A model generated the notes under the pieces. The model did no database searches and was not told where the DNA came from. It was given only the letters and a program-made list of their open reading frames with translations. This document shows, piece by piece, positions 3,928 through 15,046 of a DNA stretch of 24,000 nucleotides. Source of the stretch: an uncultured bacterium (GTDB lineage: Bacteria > Planctomycetota > Phycisphaerae > Phycisphaerales > SM1A02). Where the stretch lies: the NCBI GenBank assembly GCA_903891095.1, contig CAITDI010000057.1:14329-38328 (forward strand), in the 5' to 3' direction. The position numbers were made by a program, and so were the translations under genes. Each line of letters opens with the position of its first letter. The stretch's first letter is position 1.

Positions 3928-4518
3928 ATGTCGTTCGCCACAGTGTTTGCCGCCGGACTCTTGATGCAGTCCACCCCGCCCGCACAGGAAACCGCTCCCG
4001 TCGCGCCGCCCGCCGCAACTGCACCTGCACCCGCGACGCCCGCCGACAACACGCCGCCCGAGCTGCGCCGCAAGAGCTTCAACGTCGACAAGGACGGCGT
4101 CGCGCTGCAGGGCTACGACCCGATCTCGTATCTCGACAAGTCGGGCCCGAAGCAAGGCAAGCCAGAGCACGCCTTCGCCTACCGCGGCGTCACGTACCGC
4201 TTCGCCACCGCGGAAAACAAGGCGAAATTCGAGGCCGAGCCCGCGAAGTACGAGCCGCCCTACGGCGGCTGGTGCGCGTGGGCCGTGATCGACGGCGACA
4301 AGGTCGAGATCGACCCGATGAACTACGAGGTCATCGACGGCAAGGTCTACCTCTTCTACAAGGGCTGGCTCGGCAACGCGAAGAAGAAGTGGGACGACAA
4401 GCTCAAGACCGACGGCGCGAAGAAGACCGTGACCGCGGCGGACGGCGGCTGGAGGAAGCTCGCCGAGGCCGACAAGACCGCATTCGACGCCGAGCACAAG
4501 AAGCCCGCGGGACGCTGA
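3928..4518 (+). CDS. secreted YHS-domain protein (Cys form of the YHS-domain (seleno)protein family)
   Basis: AGGAG at 3918-3922, 5 nt before the ATG. Hydrophobic N-terminus, then a Pro/Ala-rich linker. Next comes LQGYDPISYLD...AFAYRGVTYRFATAENKAKFEAEPAKYEPPYGGWCAWAV...DGKVYLF, which I recognise as the YHS-type domain with the GG-x-C motif. Confidence 0.8.
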   Translation: MSFATVFAAGLLMQSTPPAQETAPVAPPAATAPAPATPADNTPPELRRKSFNVDKDGVALQGYDPISYLDKSGPKQGKPEHAFAYRGVTYRFATAENKAKFEAEPAKYEPPYGGWCAWAVIDGDKVEIDPMNYEVIDGKVYLFYKGWLGNAKKKWDDKLKTDGAKKTVTAADGGWRKLAEADKTAFDAEHKKPAGR

Positions 4519-4548
4519 CCTCGCGCGCGGCAACGGCGGAGATCCGCT

Positions 4549-5313
4549 TCATGCAGGCTCGTTCAGCTCGGTCACGCGGATGACCGCGAGACCGTCGACG
4601 ACATCCACGGCGCCGCGCACGCGCACGGGGCGCGCGATCCACGGCGCCAGCACATCGAACGGCAACGGCGCACCGTCCTGCCCCACCACGAGCGCACGCC
4701 GCATCGAGCCATCGGGCGCGCGGCACACGATCGACGGCGGAATGCCGCCGCGGATGCACAGCGTCGCGCAATCGCGGTGCGTCTTGCCGTCGCCCGGCTT
4801 CATCACGCCGAGCCAGCACTTGCTGTCGACGATCTCGCCGACGAGCTCGACGGTGCCGATGCGATCGAACTGCCCCGCTGGCGGAAGCACGCCGCCGACC
4901 GCGATCGGCTCGTCCTCCGAAAGTTCCAGCATGCGCTGCCCGTCGCGCGTGATCAGGTAGCCGCGCGCGCGCACCGCCGTGCGGGTTCCATCGGTCTTCG
5001 CGAACGGCGCGACGCGCGCGTCGGCGCCGTGCTTGCCCATCTCGACCAGCAGCACGCGCTCGGCCGTGCCGTCGCCGCGCGCGACGCGCAGCATCGGGAA
5101 CGGCTTCGCGATCACTTCGCCCTCGAGCGTCACCTCGTGACCCGTGTCCCACACGCCTCGGCCGGTGGCGGGCGCAGCCGCGTTGAAGACGACCGCCGCC
5201 GCGAGCGCCAGGATCACCGTCGCGATCACGAACACGCGCGTCCACCGCACATCGCGCGCGGGCGTCGGCAGGTAGCCGACGAAGAAGTCGCCTGAATCGC
5301 CTTCAGCGCTCAT
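4549..5313 (-). CDS. membrane-anchored extracytoplasmic protein with a four-Cys cluster, function unknown
   Basis: C-terminal 254 codons of track ORF 4549..5874, starting at ATG 5313..5311, which overlaps the upstream stop (ATGA). Basic N-terminus (ARDVRWTR), one TM helix (VFVIATVILALAAAVVF) and a ~210-aa soluble domain containing KCWLGVMKPGDGKTHRDCATLCIRGGIPPSIVC. I could not assign a family. Confidence 0.7.
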   Translation of the reverse strand: MSAEGDSGDFFVGYLPTPARDVRWTRVFVIATVILALAAAVVFNAAAPATGRGVWDTGHEVTLEGEVIAKPFPMLRVARGDGTAERVLLVEMGKHGADARVAPFAKTDGTRTAVRARGYLITRDGQRMLELSEDEPIAVGGVLPPAGQFDRIGTVELVGEIVDSKCWLGVMKPGDGKTHRDCATLCIRGGIPPSIVCRAPDGSMRRALVVGQDGAPLPFDVLAPWIARPVRVRGAVDVVDGLAVIRVTELNEPA

Positions 5314-6359
5314 GCCGCGCCTCCCTCGCCCGCGGCGCATGGCGGCACGGGCGTTCCCGGCGCGTTCGGCGTCGGACTGACGAAGATCGTGCGGCCCTCG
5401 ATGCGCAGTTCGTAGGTCGGAATCCGCTCGGTGAACGGCGGCGGCGATTGCCCGCTCTCGGCGAGGTACTGGTAGCCGTGCCACGGGCAGGTCACGCAGC
5501 CGTCGACGATGCGGCCCTCGGCAAGCGGCCCGCCCTGGTGCGCGCACACGCCGGAAATCGCGCTGAATCCGCGCGCATGGCGGAACACCGCGACCGTGCG
5601 CGCGGGACCGAGCTTGACCGCCTTCGCGCGGCCTTCCTCGATCTCGCCGACTTCGCCAACGCGTACCCAGCCGTCGGCCGCAAGTGCGCGCGCGCGGCGA
5701 TCCACGCGGAACTCCTTCACGCCCGCCGCGAGATGGATGCCCACGATCCAAGCCGTGCCGGCTGCGGTCATCCACGCGTAGCCCGACCAGATCGCATCCT
5801 GCAGCGAACCGAACGCGACATGCGCCACGATCAGCGCGAACGCGAGGTACACGCACAGGTGCAGCGCCTTCCACACGCGCGGCGACAGGTTGCGCAGCCA
5901 GAAGTCGTGGCTGGTCGCGGCCATCGCGAACAGGATCACCAACGCCGCGAGTCCGAGCGGCTGGAACGGGAACTGCGCGGCGCCCTCGAACGGCGTGCTG
6001 CTCGAGAGGATGCTCGTCAGCGGATCAAGCACGCCAAAGCCGTGGTACCAGACGGTCGCCAGCAGCGCGTGCACCAGCGCCATCAGGAACATCGTCACGC
6101 CCAGATGCCTGCGGTTGTAGAGCAGCGGCGCCATGCGCGGCGTGCATCGCGCCAACGGTCCGATCGAGAGGATCAGCACGAGCAGCAGCACCGCGCCGGT
6201 GCCGAACGCGCGCATCACGAGCACGATCGGACTCACCTCGAACGCCGCAGTCGCGGCAAGCACGAAGCCGCCCAGATACACCGCGATCGCGAGCGCAAGC
6301 CGGCGGTCGTAGGCCTTCTTCGCGGCATTCCATTGGACTGCTTGATAGGACACGCTCAT
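5310..6359 (-). CDS. ferric-reductase-like (FRD, putative di-heme b) six-TM domain fused to a C-terminal Rieske [2Fe-2S] domain
   Basis: Internal ATG (6359..6357) of track ORF 5310..6533, product MSVSYQAVQWN.... About six hydrophobic helices, with His pairs HLGVTMFLMALVH and HLCVYLAFALIVAH plus ATSHDFW, typical of FRD/MsrQ-like proteins. The C-terminus carries the Rieske motif CAHQGGPLAEGRIVDGCVTCPWHGYQY (CxH-x16-CxxH). Confidence 0.8.
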   Translation of the reverse strand: MSVSYQAVQWNAAKKAYDRRLALAIAVYLGGFVLAATAAFEVSPIVLVMRAFGTGAVLLLVLILSIGPLARCTPRMAPLLYNRRHLGVTMFLMALVHALLATVWYHGFGVLDPLTSILSSSTPFEGAAQFPFQPLGLAALVILFAMAATSHDFWLRNLSPRVWKALHLCVYLAFALIVAHVAFGSLQDAIWSGYAWMTAAGTAWIVGIHLAAGVKEFRVDRRARALAADGWVRVGEVGEIEEGRAKAVKLGPARTVAVFRHARGFSAISGVCAHQGGPLAEGRIVDGCVTCPWHGYQYLAESGQSPPPFTERIPTYELRIEGRTIFVSPTPNAPGTPVPPCAAGEGGAA

Positions 6360-6781
6360 GGCCGCGCACTCCGCTCCACCGCTGGTTCGGGCAGGCGCCC
6401 CGCATCGCGCGTCTCGGGCAACCGCTCGGCCCGCGAGCGAATCGCGACCAGCAGCACCAGCGCAACCAGCGGTGCCAGCACGATCCACGCAAGGAGCGCG
6501 CGCGAGCGGAGCCGCTCCGACGCGGGCTGCCAACGCTCGGTCCGATCACCAGGGACCTCCGCGGCGTCGCCTGCATCGCGAGCCGCAGCCCGCCACCAGC
6601 GCACCATCAGCAGCGGCCACAGCAACGCCGCGCCCGGCGCCACCAGCAGCCTGAATCCGCGCGTCGCGTGCCGCGCGACCGGATCGACCACGGCCACTCC
6701 GCGCCACGCGAACGCAGCGGCAAACAGCACGCCGATCACGGCGTAGATCATCACGGTCTCGACGATGAACTCGGTCAGCAC
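6356..6781 (-). CDS. small membrane protein (about 3 TM helices), function unknown
   Basis: 3' part of track ORF 6356..6874. The stop overlaps the downstream ATG (ATGA at 6359..6356). The start is uncertain: GTG at 6781..6779 (VLTEFIVETVMIYAVIG) or ATG at 6751..6749 (MIYAVIGVLFAAAFAW). No family recognised. Confidence 0.5.
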   Translation of the reverse strand: MLTEFIVETVMIYAVIGVLFAAAFAWRGVAVVDPVARHATRGFRLLVAPGAALLWPLLMVRWWRAAARDAGDAAEVPGDRTERWQPASERLRSRALLAWIVLAPLVALVLLVAIRSRAERLPETRDAGRLPEPAVERSARP

Positions 6782-6843
6782 GGCGGGAAGATACAGCGAA
6801 CAATCAGGGCAGGATTCCACTATCCTCGCCGAACGGATTGAAC

Positions 6844-7368
6844 ATGACCGCTTCCTCGCCGACATCCGACCCACGCATCGCGCTCGCCAACGCGCTGGAC
6901 GCTCTCGCCACTCTCGCCGCGAAGGCCGACGACGCCGTCTACGCGGGCGGACTGGCCTACGGCTTCCATAGCCCGCTGGGTGCGCACTTCCGCCACTGCA
7001 TCGACCATGTCGACGCGCTGCTCAACGGCGTCGCGTCGGGCGAGATCAGCTACGACCGCCGCGAGCGCGGCACCGCGATCGAGAAGGACCGCGCCGCGGG
7101 ACTCAGCGCCGCCGCCGAACGCGCCGCTCTGGTGCGGGCGATCAGCGACACGATGCTCGACTCGTCGATCTCCGTGGCCGCGATGGTCACGCCCGATGCG
7201 CCCGAGGTCCGCTTCGACTCCACGGTCGCGCGCGAGGTGCTCTACGTGTTCCACCACACCGTCCACCACACCGCGCTGATGTCCGCGCAGGCGACCAACA
7301 TGGGAATCCAAGCCGACCCGAAGGCCGGCCGCGCCCCCGCGACGCTTGCCAACGACGCCCGGCATTGA
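6844..7368 (+). CDS. DinB/YfiT-like four-helix-bundle putative metalloenzyme
   Basis: Track ORF 6838..7368 begins at TTG 6838, and the first ATG is at 6844. His-rich motifs GAHFRHCIDHVD (N-terminal third) and VFHHTVHHTALM (C-terminal) have the spacing of the DinB-superfamily metal triad. The assignment is by eye only. Confidence 0.55.
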   Translation: MTASSPTSDPRIALANALDALATLAAKADDAVYAGGLAYGFHSPLGAHFRHCIDHVDALLNGVASGEISYDRRERGTAIEKDRAAGLSAAAERAALVRAISDTMLDSSISVAAMVTPDAPEVRFDSTVAREVLYVFHHTVHHTALMSAQATNMGIQADPKAGRAPATLANDARH

Positions 7369-7377
7369 CGCGTTGCC

Positions 7378-8121
7378 ATGTGCACCCTTTCGATCATCGC
7401 GCCCGCGCCGCGCAGCTTCGTCCTCGCGTTCAACCGCGATGAGAAGCCCACTCGCGCCGAAACCGATCCGCGCGTGCATACCGGTCGCCGCACCTGGATC
7501 ATGCCGGGCGACACGCAGGCGGGCGGCTCGTGGATCGCGGTCAACGACGCGGGCATCGCGCTCGCGGTCCTCAATCGCAACGACGGTCCGCCGCCCGCCG
7601 ATGCGCCCGCCGATCTGGGCGCGAGCCGCGGGACCCTGGTGCCGGCGCTGGCCGAATGCGGTTCGCTCGACGAGATCCGCTCGGGCGCCGAGCGCATCGC
7701 CGCGGGGATTTCGCGCGCGTTCCGCCTGATCGCGACCGACGGCACGCGCGTGCTTGAGGTGGTCGGCGGGGACCACCGCGCCGACTGCGCGCTCGAGCCG
7801 CTCGTTCGACCGTTCCTGCGCGCGTCGAGCGGACTCGGCGACGCGCTCGTGCGCGAGCCGCGCGGCGAACTCTTCGCGGCGATCGTCGCGCGCGCGCCCG
7901 ACGAGGACCTCGCCGCGGCCCAGCACCACTTCCACCGCCACCGCTGGAACGACCGCCGCCACCTGAGCGTGCTCATGGACCGCGAGGGCGCGCGGACCGT
8001 CAGCATCACCACCATCATCGTCGATGACGCGCGGGTGCAGCTCGTGCACGCGCGGCGCGGCGACGGTGGAGGCCTTCCCGAGAGCCTCCCCGAACTCCGG
8101 CTCGAGCTCGACCGCCGTTGA
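7378..8121 (+). CDS. NRDE-family (TANGO2-like) protein with N-terminal Cys
   Basis: MCTLSIIAPAPRSFVLAFNRDEKPTR carries the Met-Cys start and the eponymous NRDE motif of this family. The gene starts 9 nt after the DinB-like stop. Confidence 0.85.
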   Translation: MCTLSIIAPAPRSFVLAFNRDEKPTRAETDPRVHTGRRTWIMPGDTQAGGSWIAVNDAGIALAVLNRNDGPPPADAPADLGASRGTLVPALAECGSLDEIRSGAERIAAGISRAFRLIATDGTRVLEVVGGDHRADCALEPLVRPFLRASSGLGDALVREPRGELFAAIVARAPDEDLAAAQHHFHRHRWNDRRHLSVLMDREGARTVSITTIIVDDARVQLVHARRGDGGGLPESLPELRLELDRR

Positions 8122-9797
8122 GCGACCCCGCCACCACGCTCCCCGGCGGACTCGAGATCGCCGCCACGATGCCGCCGATCGTGCAGGCGCTCGCGCTGAT
8201 GGTGGGCACATTCATCCTGGAGGACACGACCGCCATCACCGCGGGCCTGCTCGCACACGCCGGCGTCGTGTCGCTTTCCACCGCGATGCTGGGGACGGGA
8301 ATCGGCATCTTTCTCGGCGATCTCGGCCTGTACGCGCTCGGCGCCGCCGCCGCACGCGGCGCGCGCGGGACGGGTTGGGTCCGTCGCAGGCTTCCCGAAG
8401 CGCGGCTGCGCACCGTGGCCGACTGGTTCGGCCGTTCGGGTTGGAAGGCGATCGTCTTCTCGCGATTCGTGTCGGGCTCGCGGCTTCCCATCTATCTCGG
8501 CGCCGGCTTCGTGGGCGCGGGCTTCGCGCGCTTCGCGCTCTGGACCTTCGTGGCCGTGCTGGCGTGGACGCCGCTGGTGGTCGGCGTCACGGCGCTGCTC
8601 GGAAGCTCCGTCTCCAGCATCGCACGCGACCACATCGGCACCAGCCCCGCAGCCTGGATCGCCGTCGCCATCGCGGTGATCGTGCTCATGCAGGGCGCGA
8701 TCCTGGCGGTGGCCCGCCGCCGCGCGATCCTCGTTGCGCTCGATCGCGCGCGTCGATTCGAGTTCTGGCCGAACTGGGCGATCTACGCACCGATGCTCCC
8801 CTGCTTCGCGTGGAATGCCCTGCGTTTCGGCTTCGCGCGCACGCTCACGGTCGTCAATCCGTGCTGGCCCGACTCGGGCGCCGTCGGCGAGAGCAAGCAG
8901 GCGGGCCTCGAGGCCTTCGACAGCGAGTTCGTGTCGCCGAGTTTCCTCCTGGCACCGCCCGAGGGCGGCGCGTTCACGCGCGACCAGATCGACGCCGCCG
9001 TCGCCACGCTCGGGAGCAAGGGGTGGCCCTACCCCGTCATCGTCAAGCCCGATGCGGGACAGCGCGGCCTCGGCGTCAAGCTCGTGCGCGGCGAGCCCGC
9101 GCTGCGCGAGCTCCTCGGGTCGGCACGGGCGCCGGTCATCGTTCAGCGCTTCGAGGCGGGCGCATGCGAGGTCGGACTCTTCTTCATCCGCGATCCGGGC
9201 ACCGACGGCAGGTTGTTCTCGATCTGCGACAAGCGCTTCCCCCACGCCGCGGGTGACGGTCGCTCGACGCTTGCCGAACTCATCGAGCGCGATCCGCGCC
9301 TGCGGCTCCAGGCGCGGGTCTTCCTCGAGCGGTGGGCGGGCCAGCTCGACCGGGTGCTCGCCGCGGGCGAATCACTCCGCCTCGCAAACGCTGGCAACCA
9401 CGCCCAAGGGTGCCTGTTCGTCGACGGCGAGCGCCTTCGAACGCCGAAACTCGAGGCGTGGGTGCGCCGGGCCTGTTCGACCGCGCGCGGCTTCAACTAC
9501 GGCCGACTGGATGTGCGCTTTCCAGACGAGGCGGCATGCCGCCGCGGCGAGGGTGGCGTGATCCTCGAAGCGAACGGCATCACCAGCGAGTCGACCAACA
9601 TGTACGACCCGAAGCTGGGCGCCCTGCGCGCGTGGAAGCTCATGCACGCGCACTGGCGGGCCGCGTTCCGCATCGGCGCGGCGAATCGTGCCAAGGCTGT
9701 TGCAGGAAGCGATCCGGCGGGCATGACGCTGCGCGAGGTGCTCCGCCGTCGGCGGGAATGGCTCGAACGCGCGGACACCCGCGCCATCGCCGACTAG
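8118..9797 (+). CDS. DedA/VTT (SNARE-associated) membrane domain fused to an ATP-grasp ligase domain
   Basis: TTG 8118 overlaps the NRDE stop (TTGA). An alternative ATG is at 8169. The N-terminal ~215 aa are hydrophobic with the DedA motifs ILEDTTAITAGLL and FSRFVSGSRLPIYLGAGF. The C-terminal ~330 aa carry ATP-grasp motifs: PVIVKPDAGQRGLGVKLV, VIVQRFEAGACEVGLFF, GDGRSTLAELIERDPR, GNHAQG and GRLDVRF...VILEANGITSESTNMYDP. Confidence 0.8.
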   Translation: MSDPATTLPGGLEIAATMPPIVQALALMVGTFILEDTTAITAGLLAHAGVVSLSTAMLGTGIGIFLGDLGLYALGAAAARGARGTGWVRRRLPEARLRTVADWFGRSGWKAIVFSRFVSGSRLPIYLGAGFVGAGFARFALWTFVAVLAWTPLVVGVTALLGSSVSSIARDHIGTSPAAWIAVAIAVIVLMQGAILAVARRRAILVALDRARRFEFWPNWAIYAPMLPCFAWNALRFGFARTLTVVNPCWPDSGAVGESKQAGLEAFDSEFVSPSFLLAPPEGGAFTRDQIDAAVATLGSKGWPYPVIVKPDAGQRGLGVKLVRGEPALRELLGSARAPVIVQRFEAGACEVGLFFIRDPGTDGRLFSICDKRFPHAAGDGRSTLAELIERDPRLRLQARVFLERWAGQLDRVLAAGESLRLANAGNHAQGCLFVDGERLRTPKLEAWVRRACSTARGFNYGRLDVRFPDEAACRRGEGGVILEANGITSESTNMYDPKLGALRAWKLMHAHWRAAFRIGAANRAKAVAGSDPAGMTLREVLRRRREWLERADTRAIAD

Positions 9798-9860
9798 ACG
9801 CACGCGGGATGCGACCTCCTGCAAGCCGATCGCGACGCAGCTCGACCATCGCGCCCTCCC

Positions 9861-9990
9861 CGCGACTTCGGTCCGCAACTCGAGGTCGCGACTCGGGGCC
9901 GCGACTCGGGGCCGCGACTCGGGGCCGCGACTCGGGGCCGCATAAGTCGGGGCCGCAAGTCGAGGCCGCAAGTCGGGGCCGCAAGTCCCC
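9861..9990. repeat. 13-bp direct tandem repeat, ~10 copies (consensus CGCGACTCGGGGC)
   Basis: Read directly. There are four perfect copies at 9887-9938. They are flanked by degenerate copies (CGCGACTTCGGTC, CGCAACTCGAGGT, CGCATAAGTCGGGGC, CGCAAGTCGAGGC, CGCAAGTCGGGGC, CGCAAGTCCCCCG). The array starts 64 nt after the stop at 9797. Confidence 0.9.
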
Positions 9991-10367
9991 CGAATGCACG
10001 CCCGCTCTCGCGGGCCCAAACGGAGTCCACAAACCCACGGGTCTGCAGGGATTCTTACTCGGGGCGCACCCCCGATTCGGCGAGCCCGTTGGCTCGATCG
10101 AACGCGGCGGCCCGCTCCCTCTCGCATCCATGCGGCGAAGCCGAGGTCGCAGCCAGTCAAGCAGTTACGCCCGGAGGTCGAACACGGATCACGGGGACTC
10201 TTCATCCGCGCCATTCGAAGGGCAAAGTTCGCGCCGCGATTTGGTTCGTTTTCCATTTGCACTCTCAGGTTCCCGCTGTAACTTTCACCCTGCCGTTGGG
10301 TTTCGAGGCACCGGATACGTTTCCGTTGGTCGAGCCTGAGGACAATTGGACCTTCGAGGAGACTGGC

Positions 10368-12446
10368 ATGGCTCTCAAGAGCACTATCAGCATCGCTTCC
10401 GGCATGACGGCGCTTGGCGCGCTGCTTGTCGCGAACACTGGCGCTTTCGCGCAGTGCACCGTTACCACCGCGACCAACTACACCCAGGTTGACACCGGCT
10501 GCCCCGTCACTGGCGTCACCGACACCAACGGCGGTTGCAACACCACCCCGACTTCGTGGCAGGCCACTGGCACGCTCACCCGCGCCAACCCCAGCTTCAC
10601 GATCTACGGTTCGTGCGGCAGCAACCTCGACGGCACCAGCCGCGACCTCGACTGGTACAGCTTCGACGTCGCTGAGCCGTGCTTCGTCAACGTCAACATC
10701 CAGACCAAGGACCCGGCGACGGGCATCGGCTCGACGAACTTCACCGTGTTCTTCTCGAACACCACCCAGTTCGCCAACTGCGACGCGACCGGCTTCGACT
10801 ACACCGCTTGCCCGATCAACTACGCGGAGCAGGGCGTCAGCGCCGGCACCTGCGGCCTGATCGTCACCACGCCGTTCACCCCGGTCAACAGCTGCAACAC
10901 CGAGTACACGATCACCGTCACGGCTCGCTACTCGACGTTCACCGCCTGCGGTACCCCCGCTGGTGGTGACTGCGGTCACGCCACCCCGGCCGTCGCTGGC
11001 TGCCAGGACGTGACCTGCTGCGACACCATCTGCACGGTCAACCCGCTCTGCTGCGACATCGCGTGGGATCAGTCCTGCGCCGACGCCGCACAGCAGCCGA
11101 CCTCGCTCGGTGGTTGCGGCGTGTTCGTCTACAACTGCACCAACGTTCCGGGCGCCGCGGCCAATGACTGCGCGATCCACGCTCTTTCGACCAACCTCAA
11201 CTCGCTCACCACGTGGAACAACGCCAGCTGCAACACCGACGGCCCGAACAACGGCCAGTGCGGCAGCACCACGCTCCACGACGTGTGGTTCATGACCCTC
11301 GCCCCGTCGAACGGCAACATGACCCTCACCGCGAACTCGCCGACCCAGGACATCGTCCTCTCGGTCTACAACAACGGCACGACTTCGACCGTTGACGGCA
11401 CCCAGCTCGCCAACAACTTCGTCGGCTGCCTTGACAACGCTGGTATCGGTGGCGAAGCCGTCACCCTCACCGGCTGCACGGCTGGCACCTACTACCTCTG
11501 GCGCATCGGCCAGTGGGACCAGGACACCGGCACCGTCGGCGCTGGCGATGTCACCTTCACCTTTGCCCAGGTCGTGTTTGACTCGGGCGTCCACGCTGCG
11601 ATCTGCAGCAACGGCACCGCCACCAACCTCGGTCTCTCCAGCGGCGCCATCGCCGCCGGCAGCCCGCAGCGCTGGCTCGCGGCTCCGTTCACCGTCGCTG
11701 ATCCGGACGGCTCTGGCTCGGGCACCTCGTGGACCGTCAGCCAGGTCATCCCCGAAGGCTTCTACCCGGCCGGCTCCACCAACACCAACATGAACTACAT
11801 CGTGTGGAACCGCAGCGCCACGAACGCTGCTCCGGACTACGCGACCGGTCAGGTTGTGTCGGGTCAGATCGTTGCTCCGGCCACCCTCGGCGGCAACGGC
11901 GAGTGCTACTTCAACACCAACTTCACGCTCGCCAAGGGCGACTACTACCTCACCGTGTTCGCGTCGGCTCCGGGCAACCCCTGCCGCGCCAACGACGGTC
12001 AGGCCGTGCTCTCGAACTACGCGTGGTACGTCGGCGCGCCGACGGGCATCGCGCTCAGCGACGCGACGGGCTTCTACGCCTGGCGTGGCGCGACCCAGCC
12101 CGGCTCTGGTCCGGCCACTGAAGTCGTCATCGCCGGCACGACCACCGCTTGCTCGGGTGGTACGGGTGGCTTCGCGATCTATCGCAGCCTCACCGGTACC
12201 TACGTCAACTGCACCAGCGGCGTGCTCGAAGCCAACGTCTACTCGCCGTCGATGCACATCCTCGGCAGCCCGATCGTTGGCTCCACCTGCCCGACCGACC
12301 TCAACGGTGACAACGCCACCGGCGCGGCCGACCTCTCCATCCTCCTCAGCGGATGGGGTACCGGCTCGCCCGACCTCAACGGCGACGGCGTGGTTGGCTC
12401 TGCCGACCTCTCCATCCTGCTCAACGGTTGGGGCGCCTGCCCGTAA
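10368..12446 (+). CDS. secreted Cys-rich protein with beta-sandwich-like modules and two C-terminal dockerin-type repeats
   Basis: Internal ATG (10368) of track ORF 10089..12446, preceded by GAGGAG. Signal peptide MALKSTISIASGMTALGALLVANTGAFAQ. DLDWYSFDV is a pre-peptidase-C-terminal-like motif. A small disulfide-rich module reads GDCGHATPAVAGCQDVTCCDTICTVNPLCCDIAWDQSCADAA. The C-terminus is DLNGDNATGAADLSILLSGWG / DLNGDGVVGSADLSILLNGWG. Confidence 0.8.
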   Translation: MALKSTISIASGMTALGALLVANTGAFAQCTVTTATNYTQVDTGCPVTGVTDTNGGCNTTPTSWQATGTLTRANPSFTIYGSCGSNLDGTSRDLDWYSFDVAEPCFVNVNIQTKDPATGIGSTNFTVFFSNTTQFANCDATGFDYTACPINYAEQGVSAGTCGLIVTTPFTPVNSCNTEYTITVTARYSTFTACGTPAGGDCGHATPAVAGCQDVTCCDTICTVNPLCCDIAWDQSCADAAQQPTSLGGCGVFVYNCTNVPGAAANDCAIHALSTNLNSLTTWNNASCNTDGPNNGQCGSTTLHDVWFMTLAPSNGNMTLTANSPTQDIVLSVYNNGTTSTVDGTQLANNFVGCLDNAGIGGEAVTLTGCTAGTYYLWRIGQWDQDTGTVGAGDVTFTFAQVVFDSGVHAAICSNGTATNLGLSSGAIAAGSPQRWLAAPFTVADPDGSGSGTSWTVSQVIPEGFYPAGSTNTNMNYIVWNRSATNAAPDYATGQVVSGQIVAPATLGGNGECYFNTNFTLAKGDYYLTVFASAPGNPCRANDGQAVLSNYAWYVGAPTGIALSDATGFYAWRGATQPGSGPATEVVIAGTTTACSGGTGGFAIYRSLTGTYVNCTSGVLEANVYSPSMHILGSPIVGSTCPTDLNGDNATGAADLSILLSGWGTGSPDLNGDGVVGSADLSILLNGWGACP

Positions 12447-12520
12447 GTCGAACCTGATCCGACCCCAAGCGGCGTCCCTCGCGGGACTCCTCTGAAGGAT
12501 CGGTCAAGCAGACAGAATCA

Positions 12521-12558
12521 CGCCCCCCTCGGCTTCGGCCGAGGGGGGCGTTGCTTTT
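12521..12558 (+). terminator. rho-independent terminator
   Basis: Perfect 13-bp stem CGCCCCCCTCGGC / GCCGAGGGGGGCG with a TTCG tetraloop (12534-12537), followed by TTGCTTTT. It lies 75 nt after the stop at 12446. Confidence 0.85.
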
Positions 12559-12706
12559 GGCGAGTGCTCGAGCTTCGCGCGCAACCCTTTGCCATGCTTG
12601 CAGGAATGGAGAAAGATCGTTGGCGAACCGCCGCGTTCGACCGATGATGGTTGACCACCTTCGCTGCGCCCAATCGGGTCGCCGCCAAGTCAGTATCGAG
12701 GACCTC

Positions 12707-15046
12707 ATGCATCACGCCGTGCTCCGCATCCGCTCGCTCGCTTCCGCAGTCGCCTTCGTGTCGATCGCAATGATCGCGCTCGCCTCGCCTGCCGCTCACG
12801 CCCAGCAAGGCAAGGACATCACGCTCCGCCTCGAGCGCGACAACACCGTCGTCGCCGAGAGCTGCACGGTCGAGACTCCCGCGTTCGCCCTCGCCGACGC
12901 CGACGGCAACGGCGTGATCCAGATCAAGGGTCGCGCGGACGGCACGCGCATCGTCGTCGACCTCGGCGGCAACATGCTGCTGGGCGGCGTGGGCACGCCC
13001 GAGCGCCTCACGGGCATCGGCATCGCCATCACAGGCCGCAACGTGACGCTGCGCCACGGTCGCCTCAAGGGCTTCAAGGTCGCCATCAGCGCACAGGACT
13101 GCGACGGTCTCGTGCTCGAGGACCTCGACACCAGCGACAACTACGCGCAGCTCCTGCGCTCCACGCCGTGGGCCGAGGACGAGGCCGACTGGCTCTTCCC
13201 CCACAAGAACGACAACGACGAGTGGGCCAAGCAGCACGGCGCGGGCATCTCGGTCAGCCGCGCCAAGGGCGTGTCGATCCACAACATCTTCACCCGCCAC
13301 ACGCAGAACGGCATCCTGCTCGACCGCGTCACCGACTCGCAGGTCTACGACAACGACTGCTCGTTCCTCTCGGGCTGGGGCCTCGCCATGTGGCGCTCTT
13401 CGGGCAACACGGTCTGCCGCAACAGCTTTGACTTCTGCCTCCGCGGCTACTCGCACGGCAAGTACAACCGCGGCCAGGACTCCGCGGGCATCCTGATGTT
13501 CGAGCAGTGCTCCGACAACATGATCGCGCTCAACAGCGCGACCCACTGCGGCGACGGCATCTTCGGCTTCGCCGGCAACGAGGCGCTCGGCGAGACGCCT
13601 TCGCCGTCGTCCAAGATCGACCTCGACCAGAACGGCAAGGAGAAGGATCCCGGCGCCCGCTACCGCGGCCGCGGCTGCAACGGCAACCGCTTCATCGGCA
13701 ACGACCTCTCGTTCGCCGCGGCGCACGGCCTCGAGATGACGTTCAGCTTTGGCAATGTGATCGCCCGCAACAAGTTCGACTCGAACGCCATCTGCGGCAT
13801 CTGGGGCGGCTACGCCCGCGAGACCGTGATCGTCGGCAACCAGTTCAACAGCAACGGTCGCCTCATGACCGGCTCCGAGCGCGGCGCGATCAACATGGAG
13901 CACGCGCAGCGCTGCGTCGTGGCCAACAACAACTTCAAGCGCGACATCGTGGGCGTCGCGATCTGGAGCGATGAAGACGCGGGCATCGCCAAGCTGCCGT
14001 GGGCCAAGGCCAACGGCATGAACGCGAGCGCCAATCGCATCGTCGGCAATCGCTTGATCGACTGCGACACCGGCATCCTGCTCACCGGCGCAAAGGACAC
14101 GATCCTCGCCGGCAACACGCTCGAGGGCGAGGGCAAGCTGCTCGAGGAGAAGGACACCGCGGGCACCGTCCAGAAGGACGCCGCACCCGAGCGCGACGGA
14201 CCGTCCGACGCCGACTTCGACGCGATGCTCGCCAAGCTGCCCGGCACCCGCAAGGCGGTCGGCGCCCGCGAGAACCTCCGCGGCCGCGACCACAACGTCG
14301 TCCTCAACTACGGGCCGTACGAGTGGCTCAAGCCGATCGTCGTCCGCATCACCCCGAGCCAGCACGAGGGTCGCTTCCAGGCCTACGGCTTCCCGGCCCG
14401 ACTCGACGGCGTCAGCGTCGTGGGCAACGGCCCGATCATGGCGGGCATGGACTTCGGCACGGGCATGTCGATGGTGACCGCCAACATCCGCGGCTACCCC
14501 GCGCCGTACTACCTGCAGGTGCGCGACGTCTTCCACAACGAGGCGCGCGTCCTCGCCATCGCGGCGTCCGCGGACTGGGAGACCAAGGTCTTCGCGCTGG
14601 ATTCCGCCGACAAGAAGCTCGACGCGGTCCCCTCGCTCGAGGCCTTCCACGCCCTCGCCGAGGCCGAGCCGCGCACGTCGGTGGTGTTCGAGATCGACTG
14701 GAACTTCGGCGGCAACGCCCCGCAGGCGACCATCGACCACCCGGATATCAAGCAGATGACGCTCCCCGCCGACCGCTTCGGCATCGTGAGCAAGACCAAG
14801 CTCAACTTCCAGCCCGGCCGCTGGAAGGTCAACATCGAGAGCGACGACGGCGTGCGACTGCTGATCGACGGCAAGGTCGCGATCGACCGCTGGAACATCC
14901 ACAAGCCCACCGTCGACAGCTACGAGTGGGAAGTCACCGAGCGCAAGGACAGCGTCTTTGAGCTCGAGTACTTTGAAAATGTCGGCCCCGCGCGCCTGCG
15001 CGTGTGGTTCGACGCGATCGATCCCAAGGTCCTGGGCGCCAACTGA
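12707..15046 (+). CDS. secreted right-handed parallel beta-helix protein with a C-terminal PA14 domain
   Basis: Internal ATG (12707) of track ORF 12551..15046. Signal peptide MHHAVLRIRSLASAVAFVSIAMIALASPAAHAQ. Repeated beta-helix turns (NRFIGNDLSFAAAHGLE, NVIARNKFDSNAICGIWG, VIVGNQFNSNG, RIVGNRLIDCDTGILL, ILAGNTLEG). The C-terminal PA14-like segment reads GRWKVNIESDDGVRLLIDGKVAIDRW...FELEYFENVGPARLRVWF. Confidence 0.8.
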   Translation: MHHAVLRIRSLASAVAFVSIAMIALASPAAHAQQGKDITLRLERDNTVVAESCTVETPAFALADADGNGVIQIKGRADGTRIVVDLGGNMLLGGVGTPERLTGIGIAITGRNVTLRHGRLKGFKVAISAQDCDGLVLEDLDTSDNYAQLLRSTPWAEDEADWLFPHKNDNDEWAKQHGAGISVSRAKGVSIHNIFTRHTQNGILLDRVTDSQVYDNDCSFLSGWGLAMWRSSGNTVCRNSFDFCLRGYSHGKYNRGQDSAGILMFEQCSDNMIALNSATHCGDGIFGFAGNEALGETPSPSSKIDLDQNGKEKDPGARYRGRGCNGNRFIGNDLSFAAAHGLEMTFSFGNVIARNKFDSNAICGIWGGYARETVIVGNQFNSNGRLMTGSERGAINMEHAQRCVVANNNFKRDIVGVAIWSDEDAGIAKLPWAKANGMNASANRIVGNRLIDCDTGILLTGAKDTILAGNTLEGEGKLLEEKDTAGTVQKDAAPERDGPSDADFDAMLAKLPGTRKAVGARENLRGRDHNVVLNYGPYEWLKPIVVRITPSQHEGRFQAYGFPARLDGVSVVGNGPIMAGMDFGTGMSMVTANIRGYPAPYYLQVRDVFHNEARVLAIAASADWETKVFALDSADKKLDAVPSLEAFHALAEAEPRTSVVFEIDWNFGGNAPQATIDHPDIKQMTLPADRFGIVSKTKLNFQPGRWKVNIESDDGVRLLIDGKVAIDRWNIHKPTVDSYEWEVTERKDSVFELEYFENVGPARLRVWFDAIDPKVLGAN

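Follow-up and report, generated by a model that had tools for sequence, protein, structure and literature searches.

A VTT/DedA membrane domain fused to a new family of ATP-grasp ligase accompanies ornithine-lipid synthases in several bacterial phyla

We analyzed a 24,000-nucleotide stretch of DNA (the window) from an uncultured planctomycete of the Phycisphaerales lineage SM1A02 (GenBank assembly GCA_903891095.1, contig CAITDI010000057.1, positions 14,329 to 38,328), in which one gene (P0001, 8118-9797, + strand) encodes a VTT/DedA membrane domain fused to an ATP-grasp ligase domain in a single chain of 559 amino acids. The gene is the last of a conserved operon that encodes, in this order, a DinB-fold (DinB_2) metalloprotein, a TANGO2/NRDE-type cysteine N-terminal-nucleophile (Cys-Ntn) hydrolase and the VTT::ATP-grasp fusion protein, and this module is tied, both physically and phyletically, to the synthases of aminolipids. 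We favor, with moderate confidence, the reading that the gene encodes an inner-membrane enzyme acting on the ornithine-type acyloxyacyl aminolipids that are made by OlsF, OlsBA or OlsH/OlsI. The fusion protein probably both modifies and moves such lipids, by a route not yet described. Searches of the literature for DedA with ATP-grasp, and for ornithine lipid with either, found no paper on the fusion protein.

The open reading frame (ORF) runs uninterrupted through 559 codons. Its TTG start codon lies in a TTGA that also holds the TGA stop codon of the upstream TANGO2 gene, and an alternative in-frame ATG is found 17 codons downstream, at 8169. The GC content at third codon positions (GC3) of the frame is 0.86 in a window of 68% GC, as expected for the coding sequence of a real gene, and a database protein of 559 residues (P0002) is 99% identical to the product. 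Scanning of the region 6500-10400 for promoter and terminator consensus sequences found none. The original prediction, made from the letters of the DNA, had described a DedA/VTT domain joined to a complete ATP-grasp ligase. All five of the motifs it quoted were found in the 559-residue translation, and the joining of the two domains was confirmed by the single intact ORF, by a Pfam VTT_dom match above the cut-off and by an ATP-grasp fold that was recovered from both a sequence profile and a structure model.

A word-indexed search returned 544 database clusters, nearly all of which span both domains, and a scan of species-representative genomes detected full-length relatives in at least 539 genomes, belonging, by record title, to Planctomycetota, Acidobacteriota, Verrucomicrobiota, Gemmatimonadota and one member of the Leptonemataceae. 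An exhaustive search with the C-terminal domain alone yielded 827 clusters (at 50% identity) at E ≤ 1e-30. The fusion, which had been called unusual, is thus common rather than rare. An assembly or frameshift error that merged two separate genes might be suspected, given that Vibrionaceae encode the two halves separately, but this explanation has practically no probability and is refuted: the same full-length fusion recurs in hundreds of independent assemblies from several phyla, complete genomes included, and the junction region is the best-conserved stretch of the protein.

The ATP-grasp catalytic core occupies residues ~261-500 (8898-9617, + strand), as judged from profile, model and invariant residues, and is followed by a C-terminal helical extension (residues 501-559 and the stop codon, 9618-9797, + strand), modeled as helices 501-528 and 538-551. 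In Pfam, the C-terminal half gave only sub-threshold matches, to CPSase_L_D2 (E = 0.012, 15.6 bits against a cut-off of 19.8) and RimK (E = 0.019, 15 bits against 21); membership in these or other curated ATP-grasp families was ruled out, all scores being under the cut-offs. A Pfam search with stand-alone relatives of the ligase found no match. A profile built from 47 homologues had its best match in the G domain, an ATP-grasp domain, of cyanophycin synthetase (7txv/7lg5, E = 4e-7); next came CphA2, RimK-type, glutathione synthetase and Ddl chains. The AlphaFold model of the fusion protein had a predicted local distance difference test (pLDDT) score of 90.8 and a predicted template-modeling (pTM) score of 0.78. 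In a Foldseek search of the Protein Data Bank (PDB) with this model, the best 50 matches were all ATP-grasp enzymes (top match 7wae, E = 2.2e-8, probability 1.00), with GshAB and Ddl among the neighbors.

In the alignment of the 47 homologues, K310, R316, Q343, E351, N427, H428, R463, D465, E484 and N486 are invariant, and K310, R316/G317, D465, E484 and N486 align with the ATP and Mg ligand positions of CphA1, so that the nucleotide-binding residues are present. By profile (E = 4e-7) and fold (E = 2e-8), the G domain of CphA1 and RimK are the closest ATP-grasp relatives, sharing the motifs K, D, E-x-N and R..N...G with the fusion protein. Unlike CphA1, the fusion protein is membrane-embedded and has neither the M (Mur-ligase) and N domains nor the pre-ATP-grasp subdomain. 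It is not a cyanophycin synthetase, scoring 19 bits in NCBIfam against a cut-off of 850 with only the G-domain region aligned. These results place the protein within the DedA and ATP-grasp superfamilies, outside the curated families of both, as a new ATP-grasp family with a new architecture and a probable new substrate class.

The ATP-grasp domain had been called complete. Its central and C-terminal catalytic subdomains are present, but the N-terminal pre-ATP-grasp subdomain, which holds the substrate, is missing from the model, where residues 244-305 form two short helices and one strand. The two halves of the protein are connected by an aromatic linker (residues 201-260, EFWPxW...Y..P...R followed by GxVGESK; 8718-8897, + strand), delimited by conservation and by stand-alone homologues, in which residues 219-237 are predicted to form an interfacial helix. 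Mean conservation of the linker is 0.66, equal to that of the ATP-grasp core, compared with 0.55 in the VTT domain. Several stand-alone homologues of ~350 residues start exactly at the WEFWP motif, and the interfacial helix is therefore part of the ligase module.

The VTT/DedA domain (residues ~20-200, 8175-8717, + strand) was delimited by Pfam, invariant columns and hydropathy. Residues 39-158 match VTT_dom (PF09335; E = 9.3e-11, 42.7 bits against a cut-off of 33.9). The charged residues E35, D36, D68, R116 and R122 are invariant among the 47 homologues and lie inside predicted membrane helices, the two arginines being spaced by 6 residues. Escherichia coli YqjA has an essential, membrane-embedded pair of acidic residues (E/D) and a pair of arginines, of which the invariant residues may be the equivalents. 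Loops 79-110 and 198-215 are rich in lysine and arginine, and the ATP-grasp domain is therefore predicted, by the positive-inside rule, to face the cytoplasm together with them.

The best NCBIfam match of the membrane half was UptA (E = 8e-9), at 35.8 bits against an equivalog cut-off of 250, which rules out UptA membership. Like the DedA-family transporters UptA (of undecaprenyl phosphate) and PetA (of phosphatidylethanolamine), the fusion protein has acidic and basic residues embedded in the membrane within a VTT domain, but it scores far under the UptA cut-offs and has an enzyme fused to it.

The operon begins with P0123 (6838-7368, + strand), which encodes a DinB_2/YfiT-fold metal-binding protein recognized by Pfam (DinB_2, E = 1.6e-5), by its model and by Foldseek. 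The second gene, P0122 (7378-8121, + strand), belongs to the TANGO2/NRDE family of Cys-Ntn hydrolase-like proteins (Pfam TANGO2, E = 2.1e-6, 28.5 bits against a cut-off of 22.6) and is translationally coupled to the fusion gene through the TTGA overlap. We retrieved 86 loci and sorted the whole set of their ORFs into clusters, with no labels assigned beforehand. TANGO2 and DinB_2 were each present in 63 of the 86, always adjacent to the fusion and on the same strand; among the 76 loci with enough upstream DNA, the counts were 58 for TANGO2 and 59 for DinB_2. In Verrucomicrobiota, the gene order is DinB, fusion, TANGO2. The TANGO2 protein of the window starts with MC and has an NRDE motif, and these features match Cys2, Asn and Asp, put forward as catalytic residues in view of the human TANGO2 crystal structure (PMC13044924). 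The proteins of this family have large fatty-acid derivatives as predicted substrates (PMC13044924). TANGO2 is the constant partner of the ligase, fused to it in four-domain chains in some organisms, which ties the family to N-acyl amino-acid lipids and is a possible clue to the substrate of human TANGO2. The model of the DinB partner (pLDDT 91.4) matched only generic DinB/YfiT structures in Foldseek (E ≥ 1e-3), and a PDB sequence search found no match; such fold matches appear to say little about its chemistry.

Three non-homologous types of ornithine-lipid synthase (OlsBA, OlsF and OlsH/OlsI) recur around the module. An OlsF-like bifunctional gene lies downstream of the fusion in convergent orientation in 14 of the 86 loci, 12-14 loci have distinct OlsB-like and OlsA-like genes directly upstream, reading in the same direction, and genes for an OlsI-like alpha/beta hydrolase and an OlsH-like GH3 ligase are adjacent in 6-8. 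One or another of the three types was found nearby in 36 of the 86 loci, and in 27 of the 51 that are well flanked (at least 5 kb on both sides). In NCBIfam, a GH3 neighbor from Pirellulales scored 683.9 bits as OlsH, above the cut-off of 620; for the other synthase neighbors, OlsI, OlsF, OlsB and OlsA were the best matches, under their equivalog cut-offs. One cluster beside the GH3 gene (c23) proved to be an antisense shadow ORF and not a gene. In Vibrio aquimaris, VTT, ATP-grasp, DinB, NRDE, YHS, DoxX_2 and OlsF genes form one co-directional row.

The same clustering bears on a reading in which the protein serves cell-wall precursors linked to undecaprenyl phosphate, with a UptA-like DedA domain recycling or flipping the carrier and a Ddl-like ligase extending lipid II or a relative by an amino acid. 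The UptA match of the membrane half, the D-Ala-D-Ala ligases among the structural neighbors and the RefSeq label 'D-alanine--D-alanine ligase' on a split gene of Salinivibrio would fit it. We consider it very improbable, as the UptA score is far under its cut-off and as the recurrent neighbors obtained by this unbiased clustering include no peptidoglycan or polysaccharide genes, aminolipid genes recurring instead.

As an independent sample, we used 401 genomes from the phylum of the window, 44 with the ligase domain and 357 without it. An OlsB/OlsF domain was found in 34 of the 44 carriers, compared with 34 of the 357 non-carriers, and the 10 remaining carriers all have GH3. Counting any synthase type, 44 of 44 carriers were positive, against 145 of 357 non-carriers. 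In 22 of the 44 carriers, an OlsB/F domain lies within ~6 kb of the ligase. The genome from which the window comes has a single gene with an OlsB/OlsF domain, a 621-residue OlsF-like ORF (contig C17, L008 1033-2898, - strand) that matches the OlsF model over its full length at 350 bits, under the cut-off of 620.

OlsH/OlsI is the third pathway to ornithine lipid, described in 2025 in a planctomycete, and consists of an ATP-dependent ligase and an alpha/beta hydrolase (PMC12493201). This precedent suggests that our protein might itself be part of a fourth aminolipid synthase, with the ATP-grasp domain forming the N-acyl amide that joins a fatty acid to an amino acid, like the ATP-dependent GH3 protein OlsH, and a fused alpha/beta hydrolase carrying out the O-acylation, like OlsI, to give a second aminolipid species; about 40% of the top relatives do have a fused alpha/beta hydrolase. 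We regard this as quite unlikely. In the phylum sample, an OlsB/OlsF-type or GH3-type gene accompanies the ligase in each of the 44 carriers, so the ligase replaces neither; the window protein has no hydrolase domain; and the nearest ATP-grasp relatives extend the carboxylates of amino acids, not of fatty acids. The fused N-terminal hydrolases were, moreover, ruled out as OlsI, with 22% identity to it and only generic NCBIfam matches.

We therefore return to head-group extension of an existing aminolipid, the reading that we favor. ATP-grasp enzymes phosphorylate a carboxylate, which is then attacked by an amine, and the known enzymes CphA1 and RimK add an amino acid to a free C-terminal alpha-carboxylate. 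The ATP-grasp domain of the fusion protein would likewise phosphorylate a carboxylate and join it to an amine. Because the CphA1 G domain and RimK extend alpha-carboxylates of this kind, the likeliest substrate group would be the alpha-carboxylate that an N-acylated ornithine (or other amino acid) head group leaves free at the membrane surface, and its extension by an amino acid or amine would give a dipeptide-type or amidated aminolipid. The interfacial helix and the VTT domain would take the place of the missing N-terminal subdomain, presenting the lipid from the bilayer, and the VTT domain would feed the substrate or shift the product between leaflets. The modification would be trimmed back or undone by TANGO2 and, where relatives carry one, as many do, by the fused alpha/beta hydrolase.

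Several points weigh against this reading. About half of the well-flanked loci have no synthase within 10 kb, and the OlsF-like gene of the window's own genome, on contig C17, is unlinked to the window, on contig C57. Most OlsF, OlsB and OlsA neighbors score under the NCBIfam equivalog cut-offs, so the amino acid of the head group is not certain. The co-occurrence counts (44 of 44 carriers against 145 of 357 non-carriers) ignore kinship, with carriers spanning more than 10 families. Both ligation and lipid movement are activities that we infer from domains and gene context, and the activated group may be either the carboxylate of the lipid or a soluble carboxylate attacked by the delta-amine of ornithine. 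Some homologues also occur in unrelated contexts: a fusion in Azospirillum has none of the partners, and the neighbors of the ligase homologue in Komagataeibacter are a S-adenosylmethionine (SAM) methyltransferase, a Haem_oxygenas_2 iron-containing redox enzyme and an IS110 transposase.

The Komagataeibacter homologue, found on large plasmids of several species, stands alone; on plasmid pGXY010 of Komagataeibacter medellinensis (L090 7935-9014), it shows ~32% identity over 88% of the domain. ATP-dependent transfer of taurine to ornithine lipid has reportedly been described in the Acetobacteraceae, the family of Komagataeibacter. The idea that this homologue makes such lipids (cerilipins) found no support, since its neighbors are not aminolipid genes. 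Transfer of taurine to the ornithine carboxyl is known biochemically as an ATP-dependent reaction whose gene is unknown; this carboxyl amidation is the reaction type of ATP-grasp enzymes. Ser-Gly and Orn-Ser-Gly head groups also exist, and no ligase has been named for them, the one that would turn glycine lipid into serine-glycine lipid included (PMC12971839). The fusion gene adjoins all three types of synthase in the Ols pathways (OlsBA, OlsF and OlsH/OlsI, with OlsC, OlsD, OlsE and OlsG for tailoring), yet the known Ols proteins include neither an ATP-grasp nor a DedA protein. Neither the ornithine-lipid review (PMC12971839) nor the OlsH paper (PMC12493201) refers to a flippase or to any gene of the DedA, ATP-grasp, TANGO2 or DinB kind.

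The original prediction had also proposed that ATP-dependent ligation onto a lipid or carrier head group may be coupled to DedA-mediated translocation, in the manner of MprF. The lipid part of this proposal gained strong genomic context, which narrows the class to ornithine-type acyloxyacyl aminolipids, whereas the polyprenyl-carrier option received none. The likeness to MprF is one of logic, in that a head-group-modifying enzyme and a lipid-translocating domain are combined in one protein, with a hydrolase encoded or fused alongside. The two are not homologous: neither LPG_synthase_TM nor DUF2156 was matched by the fusion protein in Pfam or NCBIfam, and membership in the MprF family was ruled out by the lack of an LPG_synthase_TM or aminoacyl-phosphatidylglycerol synthase domain match. 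MprF uses aminoacyl-tRNA and phosphatidylglycerol, whereas the fusion protein has an ATP-grasp domain and is associated with phosphorus-free aminolipids.

The architecture of the family varies. Sorted by length, the best 150 clusters comprise 67 two-domain forms, 60 with an extra N-terminal alpha/beta hydrolase, 4 longer forms and 19 short ones; two of the 4 longest (P0150 and P0191) are four-domain chains of TANGO2, alpha/beta hydrolase, VTT and ATP-grasp. In cultured Salinivibrio and Vibrio, VTT and ATP-grasp are encoded, unlike in the window, by separate genes, but these abut or overlap (by 4 nt) and have the same partners beside them, so that the split homologues remain linked. The Salinivibrio row reads VTT, ATP-grasp, DinB, NRDE, and the split ligase of Salinivibrio kushneri (L091 7926-9038), between the VTT gene and the DinB and NRDE genes, has no Pfam match. 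RefSeq labels the split ligases 'D-alanine--D-alanine ligase', which in Salinivibrio is probably a misannotation, or hypothetical, and the fusions 'VTT domain-containing protein'; the ATP-grasp domain therefore goes unrecognized or mislabeled in current annotation.

In V. cholerae, VCA0646 is the low-salinity OlsF, and its gene comes last in a putative operon of four genes, vca0646-0649 (PMC12186959), whose other members are of unknown function; overexpression of vca0646 and vca0647 drives cell death (PMC11573629). By this published description OlsF is last in the row, as in V. aquimaris; these papers give no domain information on VCA0647-0649.

Beyond the operon, redox genes recur in the wider neighborhood. 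Divergent from the operon and adjoining it, on the - strand at 4549-6533, lies a redox module that recurs across phyla in 25-27 of the 86 loci and consists of a ferric-reductase-like heme domain fused to a Rieske domain (FRD-Rieske; 5310-6533, 25 loci) and an anchored Cys-rich protein (~4549-5310, 27 loci); the redox and lipid modules may be functionally connected. A frame at 4403-5245 on the - strand, considered as a neighbor gene, has no similarity to known proteins, and the real gene lies in the 4549-5874 frame. A YHS-domain protein (3928-4518, + strand), which recurs in the wider cluster, was found in 15 loci and in V. aquimaris, and a DoxX_2 membrane protein occurs in 26; in V. aquimaris, the YHS and DoxX_2 genes both lie between NRDE and OlsF (L093 9444-10222). 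Further recurrent neighbors are AhpC/TSA-YHS and DUF1223. Genes for an extracytoplasmic function (ECF) sigma factor, a zf-HC2 anti-sigma factor, a protein of glyoxalase fold and an MGH1-like glycoside hydrolase recur near the module in both Planctomycetota and Acidobacteriota (L003, L005, L020, L038, L041, L046 and L062), which hints at envelope-stress control. Between the ligase gene and infC, the window has two large ORFs (9798-15046, + strand), one with a weak dockerin-like match and the other with NosD/beta-helix/PA14 domains; they look like an insertion, because infC follows almost directly in the related locus L001.

These neighbors lend some color to another explanation, in which the enzyme makes a soluble product at the face of the membrane, such as a di- or oligopeptide or, in the way of glutathione synthetase, a low-molecular-weight thiol-type compound, with the VTT domain serving for export or just as an anchor, and the link to aminolipids reflects a shared envelope-stress regulon. 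GshAB and Ddl are among the structural neighbors of the ligase, the fold of the DinB partner is that of thiol S-transferases (YfiT, mycothiol and bacillithiol transferases), and redox genes (AhpC/TSA-YHS, DoxX_2, DUF1223, FRD-Rieske with the Cys-rich protein) and ECF sigma/anti-sigma genes recur nearby. Nonetheless, this explanation appears unlikely. The N-terminal subdomain for a soluble substrate is missing, and a conserved aromatic interfacial helix stands in its place, heading the stand-alone forms too; co-regulation alone would hardly account for the closeness to three non-homologous synthases, found in differing gene orders; and the predicted substrates of the TANGO2 family are large fatty-acid derivatives (PMC13044924).

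A more specific version of the aminolipid reading can be put forward only tentatively, and taken as a whole is doubtful: that DinB_2, TANGO2, the alpha/beta hydrolase where present and the VTT::ATP-grasp protein together build, flip and recycle an undescribed peptide-, amine- or thiol-extended ornithine-type lipid, which FRD-Rieske, DoxX and YHS/peroxiredoxin proteins may service at the outer face of the inner membrane.

Ornithine lipids and related aminolipids occur in about half of sequenced bacteria, in which they shape stress tolerance and resistance to cationic peptides. The family described here, which occurs in four phyla or more as well as in cultured Vibrionaceae, is a candidate both for the movement of aminolipids across or between membranes and for the extension of their head groups, as in taurine-ornithine, serine-glycine or ornithine-serine-glycine lipids. 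If this is true, it would be the first ATP-grasp ligase to act on a membrane lipid, and its DedA domain would be the first for which an enzymatic partner has been named. Human TANGO2 is the cause of TANGO2 deficiency disorder and, to our knowledge, has no known substrate. As the constant companion of the ligase, bacterial TANGO2 offers a genetic handle on the substrates of TANGO2-type Cys-Ntn hydrolases, and, if the module indeed builds, flips and recycles an extended aminolipid as in the tentative version above, the TANGO2 family would gain its first class of natural substrates, the N-acyl amino-acid lipids.

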